Assembly: GCF_022045235.1 (NCBI RefSeq)
Contig: NW_027266297.1
Location: 37,076,001-37,140,000 of the forward strand
Direction: 5' to 3'
From: Haliotis cracherodii
Lineage: Eukaryota
Length of the DNA: 64,000 nucleotides
Shown here in pieces: positions 228 to 56,300 of the stretch (the first letter of the stretch is position 1; every line of letters begins with the position of its first letter). The position numbers were made by a program, and so were the translations under genes. The notes beneath the pieces are model-generated. The model saw nothing but the letters and a program-made list of their open reading frames with translations, was not told the origin of the DNA and ran no database searches.

Positions 228-501
228 GACCCGTGAAGATTCCGGGGTAGAATAGGTCTTCAGCAACCCATACTTGCCGTAAAAGACAACTATGCTTGTC
301 GTGAAAGGCGACTTACAGGATTGGGTGGTCAGGCTCGCTGACTTGGTTGATCCGTGTCATCGATCCCAATTGCGTGGATTGATGCTCATGATGTCAATCA
401 CTGGATTGTCTGGTTCAGACTCGATTATTTTACAGACCGCTGTCATATAGCTGGAATACTGCTGAGTGCGGCGTTAAACAACAAACCAACCAACCAACCA
501 A
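228..501 (+). mobile_element. SINE-like family C (GACCCGTGAAG head, no tRNA boxes, (AACC)n tail)
   Basis: About 270 bp; more than 20 related copies or fragments in the window. Confidence 0.85.
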
Positions 502-29378: not shown

Positions 29379-32300
29379 CACACTCACACTCTCTCTCTCT
29401 CTCTCTCTCTCCACACGCACACGCACACACGCATGTGCATGCACGTCTCTATATTAGTATACTTATTCCAGTTTCCTTCATACATACAACTGTACAATTA
29501 CACTTACGATGCTTACAGATATTTTCACATCCTTAAACAGATACCCGGTAATGATCTGGTCATATGTACATCTATGTCACTTGGTTCATGCATGTCATCA
29601 CATTCAAATTGTGGAGATCGATGCTCATGATGTCAATCACTGGATTGTCTGGTCCAGATTCAATTTTTTTTAGAAACAAACTAAGATCATTTTCAAATCT
29701 ATCATGTCTATGAACTGTTATTTTCAATAAATATTGATATTTTCAGGCCAGTGGAATGCAAGTAATATACTCCCCTGCCCCCAAAGTGTCTCACACCCAC
29801 AGTGCCCTGCCCCTACAGTGACACACACCCCCAAAGTGCCTCACCCCCACAATGCACAACCCCCACACTGGCCTGCCCCCACAGTGCCACACCCCCATAG
29901 TGCCCTGCCCCCACAGTGCCACATTCCCATAGTTCCACACCCCCACAGTGCCTTGCCCCCACAGTAACCCACCCCCACCGTGGCTTGCCCCTTCAGTGCC
30001 AAACTCACATAGTGCCCCCACCCCCACTGTGCCCCACCCTGCAGTGCCCCACCCACACTGCCAAAGCCCTATAGTGCCCCAACCCCACAGTGCCATTCCC
30101 ACACAGGGCCACACCCACACAGTGCCCTGCCCCCACACAGTGCCACACCCCGACAGTGAGTGTATGCTTGTGTTGCAGGTGACTGTGGAGTACTTCCAGC
30201 TGCTGCACACTGTATCCGCCCCCCTACCTGTACAGGTATGTCCATCTCTGTCCTCCGCACCACTCTGGTGTCTTGTATCATTACTGGGAGTCTGAATACC
30301 TTTCCTTTCAAATATTGAGATCCAGGGAGTAAAATTGGTTCAGATGAGATCTGAATATAATTGGTTTTAGTGAGAAGTATGTTGAAAGAGTATTGATTTC
30401 CTTGAACGTGATTTGCAATAATGTTCAGACTATCAGACTAGCACCACCATTATCATAATTTTCACAATTTTCACTTTCGATGTGCCATAACTCATTTCTT
30501 GTAAAAGAATATCTATACTGTGTAGGTTTTGGGCCCAGTGCCATAAGTTTAGTGCTATGTAAGTCTTGTAAATTACTTGTATTGGTGTACGACTATATCA
30601 GGGTTAAAAATTGGCACTAGTCCTGTAGTCCTTGCCAAACTGCACAATGGTTAAGGTATCATAAGGACTAGGAGAAATTTGCCATTTTAAAGGGGTTTGC
30701 TATATGTTATCAATATAAGTACTAGTAGACTAAATCTGTTCATTTCTACCGCTGGTATAATCCTTCTGTTCATTGGATTCCACATTAATGATCATGTTGT
30801 GTGTGCCCTCAGTTCCACACCCTGTGTGAGAGCAGCAAGACGTACGAGCCCGGCAGTCAGTACGCCGAGTTTGTCCGCAGACTCCCAATACCCACACCCA
30901 ATAGCGGCAAACTAGAACACTTCAGTTTTGAAGCATTTGTTGCTGGAGCCAAGTAAGTCTTGTCTTATGTGTTTGTTTGTTTCACTTTAATACTGACTTG
31001 TATAGAGAGGGGGCACGGGTGGCCCAGTCGTCTGAGGCGCCGCGATTCGCTGTGCAGAGTTGCGTCCCTTGGGCACGCTAGTAACCTATGATTGTGGTTT
31101 GGAATCCCGGTTCGCCCTGATTATGTTTCTAGTTTTGTCAGCACCATACCCGGGCTCGTGGGTTTCACCGAAGTGGTTAACGTCTGAGACCTGCTTTACT
31201 TCAGGCTTTCCTCCCACATTAAGCTGATACGCCGTGATTTAACTGGAATACTGTTAAAAGCGGCATTAAACCCAACTCACTCACTCACTCTTGTATAGAG
31301 AGAACCTTGTGGGGACTCCGCGTTAGAATACATCCCAGCAATCTATGCTGCCTGGTAAGAGGCTGTCAAATGTGATCAGGTGGTGACTCGGTGACTTGGT
31401 TCATTGAGATTATTTTATCCCGACAGCTTTGTTTGCTGCTCACAGTAGCAATCACTGGACCCGTGAAGATTCCGGGATAGAATAGGTCTTCCTCATCCCA
31501 TGCTTGCCGTAAAAGGTGACTAACGGGATCGGGGGGTCAGGCTCGCTGACTTGATTGAAGCATGTCATCGATCCCAATTGCGTAGATCGATGCTCATGAT
31601 ATTAATCACTGGATTGTCTGGTCCAGACTCGATTATTTACAGACCGCCGTCATATAGCTGGAATATTGCTGAGTGCGGCGTAAAACAACAAACCAACAAC
31701 AACAGTAGCAATCACTGGTTTGTGTGTTCCAGACTTGGTTATTTACAGACCACAGTCACAGCCACACACACAAATACACATGCATGCACGTCGCTATATA
31801 AGCGCAATAATCTTGGACGCAACGTTAAACCCAATTTCACCTCACCTCACCATAATACCACAGCATAATAACTGAGAGCACATGGCCCCTTATGTTGGAA
31901 CCCTTCAAGGTGTACTTCTCCTTTCAGGTATGGTGAAGGCCGGAAGCCCAGCACACAGTCTAATGGTTCCGCCTCTTCTGACATGATACCATCAAATGAA
32001 GGATCACCGGTGTCCTCTCCTAGGAAAGGTGAGTCTATGTTACTGACATCATGTAAACTATGTACAGGATTTGGGATGTATTTTGGCCTGTGTTGGCATG
32101 TGGTCCTATGCAAAGGTCACAGGTCACAAATCAGGTGAAGGTCATGGAGAGTAGGTGGATGGGTGACTGCATTTGGCAGCTTGACTTCTCAGCTTCTAGG
32201 GCTTCGGTCCTGCCCCACACTAAAGCACATGTGGTGTGTCCTAGGGCAAGTGACTTTATTCGAATGCCTCTGTTCACCCATCAGTGAGTAGGTACCTGGT

Positions 32301-35300
32301 TGGATCAGATAGGTTTGTGACTGTTAACCTTCTAGCACCTCACAGGGCCGATCGGGTAGCCTAGTGGTTAAAGCGTTAGCTCGTCACGCCGAAGACCCGA
32401 GTTCGATTCCCAACATGGGTACAATGTGTGAAACCCTTTTCTGGTGTCACCTGCCGTGATATTGCTGGAATATTGCTAAAAGCGACATAAAACCATACTC
32501 ACTCACTCACTCACTCACTCACTCACTCACTCACTCACCTCACCTCACAGGGAGCTTTGGGTTGTATGCTGCCAAGGGAGCTGAGAATAATAATGCCCCA
32601 GTGTGCTGTGGAAATACAGCACAATATAACTAGCCTCATTTTTATTTGATACTGTTACCAGCTTATGACGTTCTTAAATCTGTGTCCTGCTTGTTGTGTC
32701 CACATTAAATGACTTTAGGCCACCTTTTTACAAATTAGAAAAGAAATATGATGGTGTTAAGTACACATAGTTATTACGATTATATTGTAGTGGGATCAAA
32801 ATGATATGTATGTATTTTCACTTCAGACAAGAATCGAGGCCCTGTAAAGGCATGGGGTCATTCTGTGGGAATTGGTAGCGACACTGATAGTGCCAGTGGA
32901 AGTAGCAGCAACAAGTCACATGATTCATCGCCTAGCAACAGTCCCCATGCCAATATGAGGAGGCAACTTGTAGCCAGTCAGTCATTGGATGAATTAGCAG
33001 AAGAGGAGCCAGAAAAATATGCAAATGGTTTGTAAAAACTGAAATGGCCTTGAACTTAATCATGATATATATGCTTGATTGATAATTAGCTCCAGAAAAG
33101 CTTTTGTACAATATGTCATATGTGCCTTTTTGGTCTGCAGTTCTGATTCTGGATGAAACAAATAATAATGGACTTTTACCAACTTCTCTTCATGGAATGT
33201 CCCTCATGTAAGATAGGTCAAGATCATTTACCAATGCAGTTGATCAGTATTACAGGAGTCAGAAAGTTGCTTTTTAGATTTGTAACATCTTCAGTTGAGC
33301 ACAAATTTCTGGTTTTATTGTTGGGTATATATATATTGGATATATTCTGTCCAAGAATCCCTAGGGGTGATGTGGATGAGACTTTCATTGTTTTCTTGTA
33401 GGTGATGAACAGCGACGGAATCTCATCAAGAGAATAATGTCAGCCAGTGAAGATGTGGTAGGTGTTTGATTAAAATCTCAGAACAAAATATGCGAATAAT
33501 TTCCAAATTGACAGGAACTTAAGATTCTCTGTTCAGAAAAATATGAGTTGATGAGATGATTTGTCTTTAAGGATGAGTTAGTAAGAGGACTTATGGTTCC
33601 GATGTTACCTCAAGAACTGATCTAATCCTTTCTGGGTCAGTGGGGTAGGTTAATGGGTGAAGTGTTTGCCACACCAAATGCTCGGGTTTGATTCCTCCAG
33701 GAGTACAACGTATAAAGCCCTTTCTAGGTGTATTCTTGCTGGAGTTGTGCTAAAAATCGCTTTAAATTGGTGCACTTTACTTCAGCTGATAATTGCAAGT
33801 TTGCAGCGCCTGAAACTTAATGCTATGTGGTTTTAAGAATGATTTTTTCCATCAGCCAAACCGAGGTCGGCGGCACACAACATTTGGTGTAGACTTCCAG
33901 GAACAGGTGAACCAGTTTAAGATGGAGGTGCCACCCATTGTGTCCATGTGTCTGTCAGAGGTAGAACTGCGTGGACTCACCATCAAGGTAGGTTCAACAC
34001 CACGCAAATGTCAGTTTACACATTTAGTTGAATTTGCAGCATTAGAAATTGGCACTAGTCCTGTAGTCCTTCCCAAACTGCCCAATAGTAAAGGTATCCT
34101 AAGGACTAGTAGACATTTGCCATTTTTAAGGGTTTTGCTATATGTTATCACTATGAGGACTAGTGGAGTAAAACTGTTAGTCTCTACCGATGATTTGTAT
34201 CTTAAGCTAAATGTACCGTGTATTCCGAGTTATTGAAGCCTCAATGTATCCATTTCTCTACCCAGGGAATGTACAGAGTGTCCGGTGTGAAGAGTAAAGT
34301 GGAGAACTTGTGCAATAGGTTCGACATTGACCCGGACTCAGTCGACCTCTCAGAACAACACCCTAATGTCATCTCCAATGTGCTGAAACTCTACCTACGA
34401 CAGGTATGGTTTAAACCAGGTGTATCTACTAATGCAACCGTGTTTAAAAAGTAGCAATCTTTTACTTTGACAACTAGTCCAATGCTCAAGTTTACAGTTT
34501 CTACTGAAAGGAAAGCCAATGGACAGTTGGGCTTTGTCACCTTCAGTAGTTTAGTACAAGATTTGTATTCACTACGATCCTTTTATCACCCATGCATACA
34601 TGTGACTGCTGAGTAGGGCTGGGACGGGTAGCTGGGGTACTCAGGTCAGGTGGATACTGAGAAGCACCCGGATACCCGGACCTGTGGTTAGTCATGTGAT
34701 ATATTGTTTAAGGAAAAAAATTATCTAGAACTCTATGGTTAAACTACAAGTCACTAATGTTTGCATTTCTTTCTCACTATGCATGCATTCCTTCTGACTT
34801 TTATGTTTGAATAAAGATAAAACATAAGTCAACTTCAGTGTATTCATGACCTGATAGTTGTTTGTGTGTATTTAAATACATTTTGCCAGGGCTATGGTCA
34901 ATCTATTCCCAATTATACAAATTTGTACCTTTCTCTAGAGACCTTCAGCGATTACCCAGGTAGGGTTGGGTAATAGTGGCTTGGGTACCCGGGTAGTAAC
35001 TTTGGACTTGTCCCAGCCCTACTGCTTAGTGATGTATAAGAGACATGTGTCTATTTTCATCTGATGAAATGGAGCCTTGTATTACTGTGTGTAGAAACTT
35101 AGTGTGACCCATTACATTGGCTGATACTGAAGTAATGTGTAGAGCTCATGACCATACATGTTGCATGAACCAATGCCGTTTGTACAATATAATCTGAGTG
35201 CTCATTGGCCTGAGGAGTCTGTTCCCACATGCTGGGAGACCCATGAAGATTCCGGGTTAAAATAGGCCTTCAGCAACCCATGCTTGCCGTAAAAGGTAAC

Positions 35301-38300
35301 TATGCTTGTCTTAAAAGGCGACTAACAGGATCGGGTGGTCAGGCTCGCTGGATTGTCTGGTCCAGACTCTTAGTATTTTCAGACCGCCGTCATATAGCTG
35401 GAATATTGCTGAGTGCGGCGTTAAACAACAAACAAACAAACATGCCGGGACCAGGCCATGACTTGAATTGTTGGTTAAAAATAGCGACTGAACTGCAAAG
35501 TGGCTGTACATTTGTATTTCAGCTTCCAGAGCCCCTGTTGACGTTCCGGTTTTACTCAGATTTTATACATGTGGCAAAGGTATGTACACCTGATATGAGG
35601 AAAGATTTTATGCATGTGGCAAAACAGAAAAGTAAATCCATTTCATTCCTGTCTTCAATGATACCATAGCTTCTAAAGATCAGGGCACATAGGTGGCGCT
35701 GTCACGTAAACCGCCACAAGTACCCGTGCAGAGTTGCCAGATATAACTGTGATCGTGGGTTTGAATTCCAGATTCTCCCTGATTATGTTTCTAGGTTTGT
35801 CAGCACCATACCCCGCTGGTCATAATGCCTTTTTTGAATTTTAACTCCACAGTGTTACCCTGTTGGGATTCTGTGTTAGAACTGGCTCCCAGCAACCTCT
35901 GTTGGTCATAATGGCTTAGTGGATTGGATCGCCAGGCTTGTTGACTTGGTTCATGGTGTGTCATTGTTCCCCGATGGTGTGGATCATTGCTCACAAAATT
36001 AATTACTTGATTGACTGGTCTAGACTCCATTATTGACTGCTGTCGGGGCAGTCGGGTAGCCTAGTGGTTAAAGCGTTCGCTCGTCACGCCAACGACCCGG
36101 GTTCGAATCCCGACATGGGTACATTGTGTGAAGCCCATTTCTGGTGTCCCCCGCCTTGATTTTGCTGGAATATTGCTAATAGCGGCGTAAAACCAAACTC
36201 ACTCACTCACTCACTTATTGACTGCTCTCATATAGCAGGAATATTGCTGAGTGGAGCATTTTATAACAAACACACACACTCACCAGTATCAGATGTGGGC
36301 CAATACCTACAGACGTTAAAAGATGGTACTTGTTGTTGCCCTGTCTGGCGCTGGGCATTAAGGGGATAAGACAAGGACAGATGTGGGCCCACCTTTATGA
36401 CTGTTTCAGGCACACACACACTCACTCACTTGTTTCAGGAACACTCACTCACTCACTCACTCACTCACTCACTCACTCACTCACTCACTCACTCACTCAC
36501 TGAGATGTGGGCCCACTGTTTACCTCTGTGACTGTTTCAGGCACACACACTCTCACTCACTTGTTTCAGGAACACACACTCACTCACTCAGATGTGGGCC
36601 CACTGTTTACCTCTGTGACTGTTTCAGGCACACACACTCTCACTCACTTGTTTCAGGAACACTCACTCACTCACTCACTCACTCACTCACTCACTCACTC
36701 ACTCACTGAGATGTGGGCCCACTGTTTACCTCTGTGACTGTTTCAGGCACACACACTCTCACTCACTTGTTTCAGGAACACTCACTCACTCACTCACTCA
36801 CTCACTCACTCACTCACTCACTCACTGAGATGTGGGCCCACTGTTTACCTCTGTGACTGTTTCAGGCACACACACACTCACTCACTCGTTTCAGGAACAC
36901 TACTCACTCACTCACTCACTCACTCACTCACTCACTCACTGAGATGTGGGCCCACTGTTTACCTCTGTGACTGTTTCAGGAACACACACTCACTCACTCA
37001 CTCACTCACTCACTCAGATGTGGGCCCACTGTTTACCTCTGTGACTGTTTCAGGCACACACACTCTCACTCACTTGTTTCAGAACACACTCACTCACTCA
37101 CTCACTCACTCACTCACTCACTCACTCACTCACTGTTTACCTCTGTGACTGTTTCAGGCACACACTCACTCACTCGTTTCAGGAACACTCACTCACTCAC
37201 TCAGATGTGGGCCCACTGTTTACCTCTGTGACTGTTTCAGGAACATACATCAGGTGTTATGAGTAGCCTGAAGACGATAGAGAAGTTGTCCTATCTGGTT
37301 CGGATGCTGCCTCCTTCCAACTTTAAAACCTGTGCTGTTCTCATGCATCATCTACAAAGGTAAATAATCAAATCACCACAGAATTCCACGGATTTCGTTA
37401 CGTCAAGTGTCACTTTTGTGATACATGCCATTACAATATACACATAAATCATGTAGACCTCAGCTAACTTTCAGTGTGCTTTTTTTGAGTAAAAACATTC
37501 TCATCCCTTCTCTCTTGGGGCAGTGAGGTAGCCTAGTTGTTAAGGCAATCGTCATCACACTAAAGGCCTGTGTTCGATTCCCCAAATGAATGCAGTGTGT
37601 GAAGCTCATTTCTGATGTCCTGGTCCATGATATGACAACAATGCAGTCCTGACAACACCCAGCATGAACGCAGTTTATCTGCCTTACAGCACAAAAAACA
37701 AGATCCTGATCCTCTGACATGTACCCATCTTTCATAGTTATTACCAGAGAGCCAATTGCGTGATTATTTTACCTTGTTTCATTCATCTAAGAGTGTGTTG
37801 TATAGAAATTTGAATACATTATCAGGGTAGCCGCTCACTCTGATGTGAACCAGATGAGCTCCAGCAACCTGGGCATCGTCTTCGGCCCAACACTACTCCG
37901 ACCAGCGTAAGTAACACTACTCCGACCAGCGTAAGTAACACTACTCCGACCAGCGTAAGTAACACCACTCCGACCAGCGTAAGTAACACCACTCCGACCA
38001 GCGTAAATAACACTTCTCCGACCAGCTTAAATAACACTACTCCGACCAGCGTAAGTAACACCACTCCGACCAGCGTAACACTACTCCGACCAGTGTGAGT
38101 AACACTACTCCGACCAGCGTGAGTAACACTACTCCGACCAGCGTGAGTAACACCACTCCGACCAGCGTAAGTAACACCACTCCGACCAGCGTAAATAACA
38201 CTTCTCCGACCAGCTTAAATAACACTACTCCGACCAGCGTAAGTAACACCACTCCGACCAGCGTAACACTACTCCGACCAGTGTGAGTAACACTACTCCG

Positions 38301-44300: not shown

Positions 44301-47300
44301 TCATATGATCAATTTGAAAAAATACCACAAAGTCTGCTATAAACTTCCAAATGTATTTATATAGGTCAGTGGGCTAAATCCTCTTGTCCTCTACGACTTT
44401 AACACTGTTGATTCTGAGTGTGTTGGATAAATGATGAGTCTGTGTGTCTTCATCTAACACAATGCCTGAAAGGAGTCATTCACAACAAGTGTGTCTTGCT
44501 GAGTTGGCATCTAGCTGTTTCATATTCATCCCATGTATTCCATTTGCTTTAGATTGTTTGACAGCTGATGTTGCACACTGCACAGTTGTTTACTGGCTCC
44601 ATCATGTCATCATGGCTGCTGTTGCAGATTCACATTCACATTCATCCTCAATTCATCTTTCAACCCTGACTCAACCCAGATGGAACTTAATACTTTCAAA
44701 TACTTGCCCAAATCAGGTTTTATGTGGTAGATATATCCAGGGATGAGAGTCTTCCGCGGATCTATGAATTTCTGCAAACTTCCGCAAACTTTAGTGACCA
44801 CAAATTTGTTAAAATCTGAGGGCTTGAGCCATAAACACCTAAAAATATGGACCATGCTCCATTGCAAAGAAGTTCCACCTGAAAAGGAAAATATCCATTC
44901 TCATCCCTATATAGCTAAGGTATCAGTGATATCTATCGCCCAGACTTGCCCTCTTTGCAAAGCATCCGTTCTTGATCTGTGAAGTATTGAAATGGCTGTC
45001 AGTCTGTTTGAAAAGTGTTTCAGTATAAGTGTCAGTATGAGAGTCATTGAATGCAAAATATTTCAATGATTAGGGTGTTCTTGTCTAAATCCTCCCTTTA
45101 GCAGCACCTGCAACAACATCTACTTTAGGTGATAGCTAACTGTGCGCTTCTATTTAAACACTGGATATTTAAGGCTGAATAGTATGTTCTTTTCATCCAG
45201 TTCATTACTTGTGTGAGTAGATTGTTCTAGGATATCAAGGCATTCAGAGCATTTTTTATTGTTATCTTTGTTTGTAAAAAGACTTGTCAGTTTTATCAGG
45301 ACACTGCCACATACCGTCTCTCTGAGACAAGACACCCAGATCGGTAAACTCCTTTCAGACCGCCCACCAGTGTGTGCTAGCCATCATCCTCATCTGTAGC
45401 TTCATCACATATCTAACATCTCACTCTATAACGCTCCGCTGGGAGATAAACGCTGTATCACAACATCTGCATGTCTCTCATGTGGGCAGATATACTCTAG
45501 TGGTAGAACCATAGACTGCACCTCTCCCTTTTGGAGACTACTCTCACTACAAATGTGATCATGTTATCTGCATGTCTCTCTTGTGGGCAAATATACACGT
45601 AGTGGTAGAACCATAGACTGCACCTTTTTCATTGGAGAATACTCACTACAGATATCGGCATGTTATGTGCATGTCTCTCTTGTGGGCAAATATACACGTA
45701 GTGGTGGAACCATAGACTGCACCTTTCTCCGTTGGAGATACCCTCTGCAGATGTTGGCATGTTGACATGAGGGATGTACTGTAGCTGTAGCTGATACAGG
45801 TCATAATACATCAGTGATATGGATTGATTCTGCCAGGGTGTCGCATGTCATGGAGAATGTTACACTGTACGACATACCTGCCTGTTGTAATTTGTTGCAT
45901 TATGAGACTGCGGTACAGTGTCTGATATTGCTGGGATGCATTATTGGGTCGTATTCCTTGTATGGGTTAAACGTTTCATTTCAAATCTGGTATTAATGCA
46001 AGTGGGTATGAACTTTTGTCATGGTATTAAGATGTGAAATGTGTGTGATGTGCATGTATGAGAACCGAGTAAGAGTTACCTCCCTTGCATGTACTATACC
46101 TCTTCAAGCTATCATGACATATTGCAGCATGGAATACAACATATATAAACATCATTATTCACAGTGTATATCAGTGTATTTATCAGTTTGAATTGTAGTG
46201 AAGGCTTCTAAATAATACATGGATATGCAACATTGTTTTTATTAACAAGTGCACACTATACTCTGTACGATTTATTAATGCATGTATATTGTACTAACTA
46301 AAATATTTATAATGGTTTAACCATTGAATTTGTCAAAATAAAAGGAAATTATTATTGAGAGTGTTGCACCGAGATTGTGTTCGGCATATTGTATATAAAT
46401 CCTTAAGAAACAGTATGTTGCATTTGACTTATTTTAGTTTCTGTCGGTCAGTGGTACTGACCCGTGAAGATCAGGAGTAGAATAGGTCTTCAGCAACCCA
46501 TGCTTGCCGTAAAAGGCAACTATGCTTGTCATAAGAGGCGACTAACGGGATCGGGTGGTCAGGCTCGCTGACTTGGTTGATCATGTTGATGCATGTCATT
46601 ATGTCCCAATTGCGTGGATCGATGCTCATGATTCAATCCCTGGATTACCTGGTCTAGACTCGATTATTTACAGATCACCTTCAAATAGTTTGAATATTAC
46701 TGAGGGCGGCTTTAAACAACAAACAAACAAACGGTATTGGTACTGTGGAAACTATGGCAACTGTCACATTAACTAGTCATTGTAGGGTTGCTTTTAGAAC
46801 TCTTTAACCTAGATCTATCAGACTTATGAAAGACCTTCCATGTTTTGGTTGTCAGTAGAATAATTGTTGATTATGGCACTTCTGATTTTTGTCATTCTGA
46901 TATTTTCCTATTCAAGTAAATTTTCTAAAATGTCTACACATTAGCTTTTAATGAGCATGGACATCCCCCAATCAACTTTTGGTGGTCCCACTTTTGGAAG
47001 GAAGAGGGCCAGCTAGGATTATCTCCCTTTTGGGGATTTCCGGGTTAGATTGGCCCACAGCAACCTATGCTTGTTGTAAGAGGCGACTTAATGAATCAGG
47101 TGGTCAGGCTTCGGGGCAAAGTTAATGTACTAGACAATGTTGGATCGTTGCTCATGATATCAATCAGTGTTTTCTTCTGGTCCAGACTTGATTATTTACA
47201 TGAGGCCATCATATAGTAGGAATATGAAGGCAGCTTTCAACATTAAAAGACACATTTGACAAGCTATGACTTAAACACAATATCTCGATGCAACACTATA

Positions 47301-53300: not shown

Positions 53301-56300
53301 TCAGCAAGGATCATACCTACAATTTGTAAGGACAAACTTTTATTCTTGGATCGCACACCTATGTAGGTTGAACCCTGCAGTTTGCAGGTGAAATGTTGAA
53401 ATACAGGTCACCAAGGCAGCAGTTATCCAACTTACTATATTTTTTGGTTGTGAATCTCACAGGGACATAATTAATTTTATGTTTTGATGCTAACAGCTGA
53501 TCAATTGTACATTACATGAGCCCTTATGTAAAATAGCCATGAAGAGTATTGGCGATTCGTATGAAAATTACTTAAAACTGAAGTAGAGTCTCTTTACTTT
53601 ACACAAATACTGATATATATATATCTTTTTCATGTTTGTTCATAGTGTAGCATGTTCCAAAGATTTTTGGGTGCTTTCAATGTCAATGTCGGGGCGGTGG
53701 GGTGGCCTAGAGGTTAAGGTGTTTGCTTGTCACGCCGAAAATCTGGGTTCGATTCCCCATATGGTTACAATGTTTGAAGCCCATTTCTGGTGTCACCCGA
53801 TGTGATATTGCTGGAATATTGCTTAAAGCGGCATAAAACCATTCCCACTCACTTTATTTTTAATTCACATTTTAAGATTAAATTTAAAGTATTTTTTCTT
53901 GCAAAAAGTCATGTGAAAATTACTTTTATGAAGTAAACAATGCCATTGGTAAAGTTAAATATGGTTTTATTGCAGAGTTAATATCCAGGGATGAAAATTT
54001 TCCTCCGATTTCGTTCCGTCAACTGTCACTATTGTGAAATATGACATTTCAGTACACAAGGGTCTCCCAGAACCCCAGCTAAATTTCAGTGTGCTTTTTT
54101 AAAAAAAAACCCGACATTCTCATCCCTGAGTATCATTCTGAAAGTCTGATTCCTGGAACTGTTAACATGTCGGGATGGGGCGATGAAGGTAGGAACAGCT
54201 TCCCATTGATAGAAATTAGTGAGTGAAAAAGCTACCTGTCAACCTCAGTCTGCATGTACAGTCTGAGAAATGCATGTTTTGTTGGTTGTTTTTCTGTTAT
54301 CCTGTTTTTGTGCAAGACAGTTGTCTGGCTACATTGTTTGCAGTGTAGATTAATACATTGTGCTTTATACCCCTTGTGGGCTATGCTTCCTGATGATAAT
54401 CAGCAGTGTTGAGCCATGTTTGAATCACCTAACAGGTGCTTGTTTCATGATGTCATTCATTAGCTTGTGCATGTCATTGCCTTTCATTTCAGAATTCCAT
54501 AAGCTTGTGTGTCATTGCTATTAGAAGCTACGGTTTGAGTAGCTGATGACCGCAAACAGGTGCTCAATTCAGGATGGGAATATTAAATGACTAATTGTAT
54601 TACGACCTTCATCAGGTAGCAGTGTATTCATTTAAGATTTTAATCCTTCTTTTGTAATGTCTTATAGAAGTTGAATAGAGTTTGAATATAGATATAGAAT
54701 TACAACAAATATGAGTTATTAATTATTGCTAAATGCCGCATCAGCCATCCCGTTGCTTGGTTTCCCTTTCATATCCTGGATTTATCAACCCTTGAAGTTC
54801 CGGGGTAGAATAGGTCTTCTCCAACCCATACTTGCCGTAAAAGGCGACTATGATTGTCGTAAGAGGCGACTAACGGGATCGGGGGGTCAGACTCGCTGAC
54901 TTGGTTGATGCATGTCATTGATCCCAATTGCGTGGATTGATGCTTATGATGTCAATCACTGGATGGTCTGGTACAGACTTGATTATTTACAGACCGCCGT
55001 CATATAGCTGGAATATTGCTGAGCGCGGCGTTAAACAACAAACCAACCAACCAACCAACCAACCTGGATTTATCTCTATTCATTATCATCAGTATTCATT
55101 AGATGTGTGTCCTTGATTGACCCAAGATACCATTCCAAGGTTTATTTAAAGAAGACTGTTTCTTGTGATCTTAGAAACAAATTTGCTTCCAAATGGATTT
55201 TGGTATTACCTCCCCTTTGTTCATCAGTTCAGTAACCGTAACCATGGTTACATGGTGTGTATTCTTGTTGTTTCAGGGCAAGCAGTAGTGAAAGTGAGTC
55301 AGAGCAGCAGTACTTCCAGACCCGCCTCTAGTCCAACGCCCCCACCCCGCCCGACCACACCTGATGCCCCATCCTCTGCAGCACTTGCATCTAGTCCAGC
55401 CCTCACCAAGAGGTCATCCGTCCAGGAGCCCAAGCCTAAGCCTACTCTGAGTCTGATAGCATGTGGAGATGTCGACTCATCTGTAAACCTGGGCAGTGAA
55501 CACTACGCCTTCTTGCCACCTAGTCCTATCAAAGTTGTCATCTCGGAGGCTGGAGATTCCGACGACGCCCACACGGAAGAGATCCAGGTGCGAGCTCCGC
55601 GGAAACCTCTTCCCTCCGAGACATCACCATTGCCTGCAATGGCTGCAGTGTCTACAACCAAGTCGCCAACTCGTCAGGGCTCTCCACCCAAAAGGGTTAC
55701 TCGTTCAGGATCAGGGTCAATAACTAAGTCAGATAGTCAGCACAGGTCCTCAGGTACTTCTGGAACCTCTTTACCCAGCTTGCCCTCGAAACCTGAATCT
55801 CGACGATATACATCTCAGACAGGGAGCTCCCCGAGGAAGGGTTCCATGGGGTCCAGTCACCCTGTCCGAACATCTGTCACCACCGTGCCAACATCCTCCA
55901 GGGTCTGTCTGAGTCGGTCTATGACTGCTGGAGCTCCTGCCTCCGTACCTAGAAGGTTGGCGACCTCCAGCTCCATGACCTCAAGGTCACACACAAGCAG
56001 TTCCCTGTCAAAGTCATCTGCCCCTGCGAGACGAAGCCTGGAACTGACATCTTCCCCATCGCGACAAATGCAGACGACAAGTGTAGGATCGTTACATTCT
56101 CGTCAGCGTCACTCGTCCGGGGGTGAGGGTGTCAACAGGTCTCCCCCTAAATCAGTAGAACGGAAGAACAGCGGCAGTTCAGCATCAAGTGGTTCAGGAA
56201 GGAGGAGTCACGACCGTTGTCATAGAGACCATCCAACTTCTGGATCCGTTACCGAGACAAATGTCACTTCCTCCACCTCTTCCGCAACCCCCTGCACCAA

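Follow-up and report, generated by a model that had tools for sequence, protein, structure and literature searches.

A covarying pseudoknot RNA shared by an LP-type SINE of Haliotis cracherodii, its partner LINE and viral 3' UTRs: a candidate exoribonuclease-resistant fold

How non-LTR elements with neither a Pol III head nor a known ribozyme obtain full-length RNA is an open question. The closest described elements are the Haliotis LP-SINEs Hdi_LP and Hmi_LP, 255 bp long, whose first ~70 bp are, according to the accessible text of PMC4758252, common to Nimb-17_LMi, I-3_DR and RTE-9_CPB. The same text proposes a promoter head, draws an analogy to the trypanosome ribozyme and leaves the partner LINE unidentified. 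Ribozymes have been described at the 5' end of elements from six LINE clades (PMC5786205, in excerpt) and in the UTRs of linear RNA viruses, where they mostly precede ORFs or form tandem pairs (PMC13725137, in excerpt). Exoribonuclease-resistant RNAs (xrRNAs) of flaviviruses often occur in tandem, and the available sections of a 2021 review report that cellular xrRNAs had not yet been found (PMC8374639).

We analysed a window of 64,000 nucleotides from H. cracherodii (contig NW_027266297.1, positions 37,076,001 to 37,140,000), in which 33 profile matches to one repeat family make up 7.8% of the length. Full-length copies of ~240-265 bp have a fixed 5' start and a 3' end formed by a (CAAA/CCAA)n tail, in agreement with an earlier note on this DNA that had described an abundant family with a fixed start and a LINE-type tail. 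Judging from its sequence, the element is almost certainly a retroposon of the 'LP-SINE' type (Matetovici et al. 2016, PMC4758252); it is probably identical with Hdi_LP, to which it was compared by length (255 bp). The features of the window used below are these:

228..490, + strand: full-length copy, long subfamily, hairpin duplicated
31317-31459, resuming at 31707-31759: older copy of the same family (profile matches) around the 31458 insertion
31442..31457, + strand: 5' target-site duplication (TSD) of the 31458 copy, 16 bp, or 17 with the shared G
31458..31701, + strand: SINE copy, LP-type, short subfamily with one hairpin, nested in the older copy
31458..31459, + strand: 5'-terminal GA of this copy, the two nucleotides between the start of the element and the CCCG stem
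31460..31476, + strand: pseudoknot A, with stem 1 (31460-63 paired with 31473-76), the single-U loop 1 (31464) and the 5' strand of stem 2 (31465-71)
31479..31484, + strand: AGAAUA, end of the conserved linker
31485..31491, + strand: 3' strand of the 7-bp stem 2
31492..31504, + strand: stem 3, 4 bp, broken in the 31458 copy (2/4 pairs)
31506..31520, + strand: hairpin with a G-UAARA-NN-C loop, putatively T-loop-like
31520..31530, + strand: CUAA joiner and 3' strand of stem 4
31536..31550, + strand: SINE-specific hairpin, beyond the shared domain
31643..31701, + strand: 3' stem-loop of LINE type with the repeat tail; the LINE that shares the head has a homologous 3' end
31702..31718, + strand: 3' TSD of the 31458 copy
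35238..35437, + strand: copy with a complete head and an internal deletion
46459..46728, + strand: full-length copy, long subfamily
54787..55047, + strand: full-length copy with a 12-bp TSD

Five copies had been said to share one start, which is exact for the first 11 nucleotides at 228, 31458 and 46459, while the copy at 35238 carries one mismatch and that at 54787 two (the latter was missed by an 11-mer search allowing ≤1 mismatch). The TSDs had been given as 12-16 bp, and this stands for the 12 bp at 54787 but not for the 17 bp at 31458, the 8 bp at 46459 or the mere 6-mers at 228 and 35238. A TSD of 8-20 bp flanks 30 of the 68 copies with an intact start, and in 19 of these 30 it stops 2 or 1 nt short of the CCCG stem; GA is the 5' terminus in 53 of 68 family copies. 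The base of stem 1 is where retroposed copies begin. In the main young subfamily (copies 228, 35238, 46459 and 54787) the hairpin is duplicated in tandem over ~21 nt. We counted 106 head-bearing matches in 1.14 Mb of genic DNA, which would extrapolate to roughly 10^5 heads in the 1.18-Gb genome provided that the genic sample is typical.

The head does not derive from a tRNA by the tests applied. ARAGORN finds no tRNA in it and, as the earlier note had stated, there is no pair of A and B boxes at the tRNA spacing that defines tRNA-derived SINE2 elements; the pair is present in a tRNA-derived SINE at 32346-32600 that served as a control. Loose box scans gave A-like matches within the hairpin and B-like matches in 2 of 5 copies.

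The evidence for an RNA fold is comparative. From 24 representatives tried, 19 copies were aligned without reference to structure, the other five being four with long inserts and one without a usable anchor. Paired cells amount to 90.6% of 342 against 72.6±1.6% in shuffles, none of 500 reaching the observed value, and two-sided changes number 66 against 21.9; registers slid as controls are 30-52% paired. Two-sided changes occur at 7/7 pairs of stem 2 and 3/4 of stem 3, and covariation is strong in these two helices, while stem 1 and the stem of the hairpin hardly vary and therefore give little information. With anchors chosen by sequence only, in 23 representatives including mis-parsed ones, stem 2 is paired at 130/161 positions (shuffle 92.1±5.5) and stem 3 at 76/92 (shuffle 52.3±3.8). 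The shuffles ignore relatedness; the rows nevertheless span SINEs, LINEs, RNA viruses and DNA viruses. AGAAT is invariant in the 19 rows, though it was used there as an anchor, and the invariance of the core 17-mer is partly circular because most homologues were retrieved with it. Pairing of the stem-3 loop with the strand that follows CUAA would form stem 4, an optional second pseudoknot, which is supported by a register-free count (80 against 60.2, 0/5000 shuffles) but is 55.6% paired and not significant at fixed columns. Taken alone, the 31458 copy folds no better than its shuffles (z -0.28, nested folding only), and the support is for this reason comparative, not energetic. The linker accommodates inserts reaching about 55 nt or more. 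The hairpin loop follows the pattern G-UAARA-NN-C, with variation at position 3, and by this pattern would fit a T-loop, which is marked by U.A closing, a purine at position 4 and two bulged bases, except for the A at position 2, which departs from the riboswitch consensus (YGNRA)NY.

Several pairings proposed in the earlier note had to be redrawn. Its H-type pseudoknot was in the right register and covaries, but stem 2 has 7 bp and the additional T-A pair is paired in only 47% of homologues. A middle hairpin exists, in the register GUCG/CGAC (97.4% paired) and not as TTGYC/GGCRA (83.2%); the GTCAG hairpin is present in the sequence but outside the shared domain, and the alternative helix GATTCCG/CGGGATC, 41.9% paired, is abandoned. 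Its general proposal of a structured RNA in place of a tRNA head is upheld by the covariation across families, by the occurrence in RNA-virus contigs and by Rfam, where neither window positions 31000-36000 nor 8 homologous loci gave a relevant match at E≤10, twister, pistol, hatchet, hammerhead and hairpin ribozymes included. The openly accessible literature searched, judged for the xrRNA context by titles and the beginnings of abstracts, holds no account of the 18-mer or of the fold in a SINE, ribozyme or xrRNA context, apart from PMC4758252 on the element itself. The head fold thus appears to be a conserved RNA structure undescribed in Rfam and the open literature searched, in an element of an already known type.

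The core 17-mer was found at 120 or more metagenome loci, mostly in SINE-like families with different bodies, the first base of the head differing between families, and at 5 viral loci, to which relaxed patterns added L160, L161, L361 and L365. Seven distinct small viral contigs carry the motif (L032, L033 with its near-duplicate L035, L034, L036, L161, L361 and L365), and in 7/7 it lies in sense 3' of the last long ORF, with 25-119 nt between the stop codon and AGAAUA and the contig end 71-215 nt away. An RdRp was identified by Pfam in L034, L036 and L161; L033 has a tetravirus-type capsid with Peptidase_A21; L032 and L361 are RdRp-like by ESM features, the L032 protein having no Pfam and no PDB match, and L365 is unassigned. 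Two copies of the motif stand in tandem in L032. L361 and L365 were retrieved with a hairpin-free pattern, yet both have stem 2 paired 7/7 and a hairpin, G-UAAGA-NN-C, that differs in stem and bulge. L160 is a 212-kb DNA virus in which the motif is intergenic, about 215 nt upstream of an ORF start. A broader viral pattern yielded mostly chance matches, with a 7/7 stem 2 in only 4 of 56 parsed, and the 115 loci parsed from further broad patterns did not include any additional complete motif. L176 and most early relaxed-pattern matches were discarded as chance, being located inside ORFs. A stop-codon read-through pseudoknot was considered, several viral copies lying 6-14 nt past the stop, and rejected for want of a long ORF downstream.

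Some related occurrences deserve mention. One metagenome contig (L055:1370-1520) has two complete heads in tandem. A 150-kb viral contig (L415:1490-1545, minus strand) contains an element like pseudoknot A alone (7-bp stem 1, U, 7-bp stem 2, AGAAUA) directly upstream of a Shine-Dalgarno-like sequence, which may be chance or a separate motif. The motif also appears within bacterial symbiont genome records (L173-L175), likely from host DNA in those assemblies, and in L175 it is followed by a LINE-like 5' UTR and an ORF with a weak zinc knuckle.

The earlier note had suggested looking for a LINE with the same 5' end, and the same genome contains one of ~6.2 kb, with an ORF1 and an ORF2 bearing endonuclease, RT and RNase H. 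Its domain content places it in the I group (Nimb), which has an ORF1 knuckle and an endonuclease-RT-RNase H ORF2, though the ORF1 zinc knuckle match is weak (E 0.05). The head motif lies near the 5' end in 15 of 20 LINE loci chosen by endonuclease match, and in L211. Alignment of the SINE with the LINE head gives 78-80% over SINE positions 15-58 and 90% over 66-85, and the LINE 3' ends are homologous to the SINE tail (8/8 with scores of 44-57 against maxima of 36-41 in 300 shuffles). The LINE has 60 nt in front of the full motif and starts at an extra pseudoknot-A module (module 1) built of a 7-bp stem, U, a 7-bp stem and an A-rich linker, without a hairpin of its own. All 21 LINE heads compared share the first G and begin G-GCACTCG; the exact module-1 junction is present in 569 of 608 heads, this total being a minimum, and among the first 100 second-module sites listed 90 have it, the other 10 being module 1 with point changes. 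None of the 10 candidates inspected for a start at the complete motif (the second module) begins there. The joiner of the LINE heads is CCAA in 13, CTAA in 11, CCGA in 5 and another sequence in 3. The family is young and intact (L229:1355-7531, minus strand, and the related loci L211 and L227-L242; at least 608 heads), and its heads lie in dense clusters, with C2:20.9-21.75 Mb holding about 70 of the first 100 listed.

The compensatory changes and the presence of the motif in RdRp-encoding contigs indicate a role at the RNA level, and it is plausible that the head defines the 5' end of the RNA. The reading that we favour, with a probability of roughly 40%, is that the head is a new fold of xrRNA-like RNA. 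The head common to the SINE, the partner LINE and the viral 3' UTRs would bring 5'-to-3' decay to a halt at its first stem, the T-loop-like hairpin docking onto the AGAAUA linker and so enclosing the 5' strand. Xrn1/Xrn2 would trim host read-through or excised-intron RNA back to the head, leaving a decay-protected RNA with a unit start, and the LINE reverse transcriptase would copy this SINE RNA from the shared tail; in the viruses the block would yield a subgenomic 3'-UTR RNA. We prefer this reading because one activity would cover the position at the start of viral 3' UTRs, the tandem copies, the boundary at the stem base and the harmlessness in introns. Against it, the LINE starts at module 1 and none of the copies examined has its start at the complete motif, although trimming of RNA that leaked through module 1 would place starts there, so that the data fit a true transcription start equally well. 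The 5' overhang is merely 1-2 nt, the motif matches none of the xrRNA classes compared (Rfam, and the coremin consensus as given in the available part of PMC10520033), the second loop base A lies outside the T-loop consensus, and stem 4 is absent from some viruses. A wider proposal is rather doubtful, namely that this fold is a mobile module swapped among LINEs, SINEs, RNA viruses and a DNA virus, which lets decay enzymes carve a promoter-less SINE from host transcripts.

It is less likely than the xrRNA reading, and on the whole unlikely, that the fold binds a protein or the ribosome, as a cap-independent translation enhancer or a mimic of the tRNA elbow, while an overlapping Pol II start sets the 5' end. 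Such an element would serve translation from the viral 3' UTR, translation of LINE ORF1 and delivery of the SINE to ribosomes making reverse transcriptase. 3' translation enhancers sit just after the stop codon, where the motif is found in viruses of cap-poor type; the hairpin is T-loop-like, every LINE copy checked has the same start site, 5' of the complete motif, and in the DNA virus L160 the motif is intergenic and upstream of an ORF. However, an extra promoter function would be required to keep the boundary at the base of stem 1 across families with different stem sequences, and the first bases of the heads vary between families.

The earlier note had suggested that the head may be a ribozyme, in which case a new class of ribozyme would cut just 5' of stem 1 and free the element from host transcripts. 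This has the LINE and viral precedents mentioned above, and it would suit the precise start 1-2 nt before a helix and the compact fold with conserved unpaired bases, but we regard it as quite improbable. Ribozymes in introns can be tolerated. The orientation of copies was counted in 1.14 Mb of dynein and myosin genes (L247-L300, L500-L559), their intragenic status being extrapolated from domain spans. Heads counted as intact, in which stems 1-2, linker and loop are all preserved, are 20:5 sense to antisense and broken heads 47:13 (Fisher p=1.0), so sense heads are not depleted; strictly intact heads are 8:1, the control tRNA-SINE 95:22, and head-bearing copies 84:22 against 50:7 for headless ones (p=0.20). 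A narrower pattern in a smaller sample, the first 0.58 Mb, gave 2:3, the sole result pointing toward depletion. The LINE retains module 1, which argues against efficient cutting before the complete motif and also speaks somewhat against trimming to that motif, keeping a true transcription start in play. Furthermore, the joiner varies in LINE heads and differs in L361 and L365, a cut in the viral 3' UTR would sever the 3' end of the genome, and Rfam has no ribozyme match. Efficient self-cleavage of the head is therefore disfavoured, as judged from these sequence comparisons. A peak of 5' starts at model positions 61-63 was traced to diverged single-hairpin copies and does not mark a cut site, and HDV, twister, pistol, hatchet and hairpin layouts, mapped by eye, did not fit.

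The whole SINE family is strongly sense-oriented in genes (272:59 in the 1.14 Mb), and in the ARHGAP29/45-like gene of the window (16800-56400) SINEs are 26:2 sense, possibly because antisense tails would supply splice acceptors. The region G000:C12:64.59-64.96 Mb contains about 14 tandem myosin-head gene units.

Explanations beyond the four named here are, taken together, also improbable. That the head is only a LINE-derived internal promoter acting at the DNA level (the 'LINE promoter' of Matetovici et al. 2016) is very improbable and as a sole function largely refuted, in spite of the extreme 5' position and fixed start, by the compensatory changes, the occurrence in contigs that encode an RdRp and lack a DNA stage, and the tolerated linker insertions of about 55 nt or more, although a promoter may overlap the fold.

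If the xrRNA reading is true, the genome would encode a cellular xrRNA in about 10^5 copies, and there would be a third route, besides promoters and ribozymes, for setting the 5' end of a retroposon. Whatever its function, an RNA family absent from Rfam ties the starts of retroposons to viral 3' UTRs. The present analysis adds the SINE context, a partner LINE sharing head and tail and carrying an extra module, and the genic orientation test; the covariation model defines a 70-nt RNA with exact compensatory mutants.

HDV-like ribozymes are built as a nested double pseudoknot, and their RNA begins at G1 of a 7-bp helix. The head resembles them in a 7-bp helix starting with G and in a hairpin followed by C-N-R-A. 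It differs in that its helices do not follow the nested order P1-P2-P3-P1.1-P4, P3, L3 and P1.1 are missing, the candidate P2 helix is unsupported, the joiner is not invariant, and in the copies 7 nt precede the 7-bp helix, with no peak of starts at position 8. Like the head, HDV-like ribozymes are short 5' domains swapped among unrelated LINEs (R2, RTE and Ingi/L1Tc, in the excerpted PMC5786205), and they also occur in the non-autonomous derivatives of these LINEs. The T-loops of FMN and cobalamin riboswitches share with the hairpin a five-base U...RA loop with two bulged bases on a short stem (bioRxiv 10.1101/2022.12.26.521914, in part), whereas the second base is A and the bulge GG or AU in the head.

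Viral xrRNAs, as presented in the available sections of PMC8374639, are comparable in their location at the start of the viral 3' UTR, their tandem copies, a compact fold that depends on a pseudoknot (the head has at least one) and a defined 5' boundary. In contrast, the head consists of an H-type pseudoknot, a stem and a T-loop-like hairpin, without the three-way-junction layout of the flaviviral (1a, 1b, 2) and Tombus/Luteo classes. It also sits at retroposon 5' ends, and its loop is UAARANN, not the YGAD or YGNNAD of the coremin consensus, in which a 4-bp hairpin is followed by a spacer and a second hairpin (PMC10520033, in part). A further mark of xrRNAs is a ring of 15-16 nt around the 5' end, to which the predicted enclosure of the 5' strand in the head would correspond. 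With the LP-SINEs the element shares the LINE-derived head of ~70 bp, the length of ~255 bp, TSDs, 3' tandem repeats and the lack of a tRNA head, and the scallop head labelled 'Nimb-17 homology' (Fig. S2 of PMC4758252) has the same core 17-mer and layout. The 'Snail' SINE consensus (Pan_3) in the supplement of that paper, as far as accessible, has the linker and the core 17-mer at its head, yet stands outside the LP-SINE list. The accessible text of PMC4758252 reports neither structure nor viral homologues; here a partner LINE shares both the head and the tail of the SINE.
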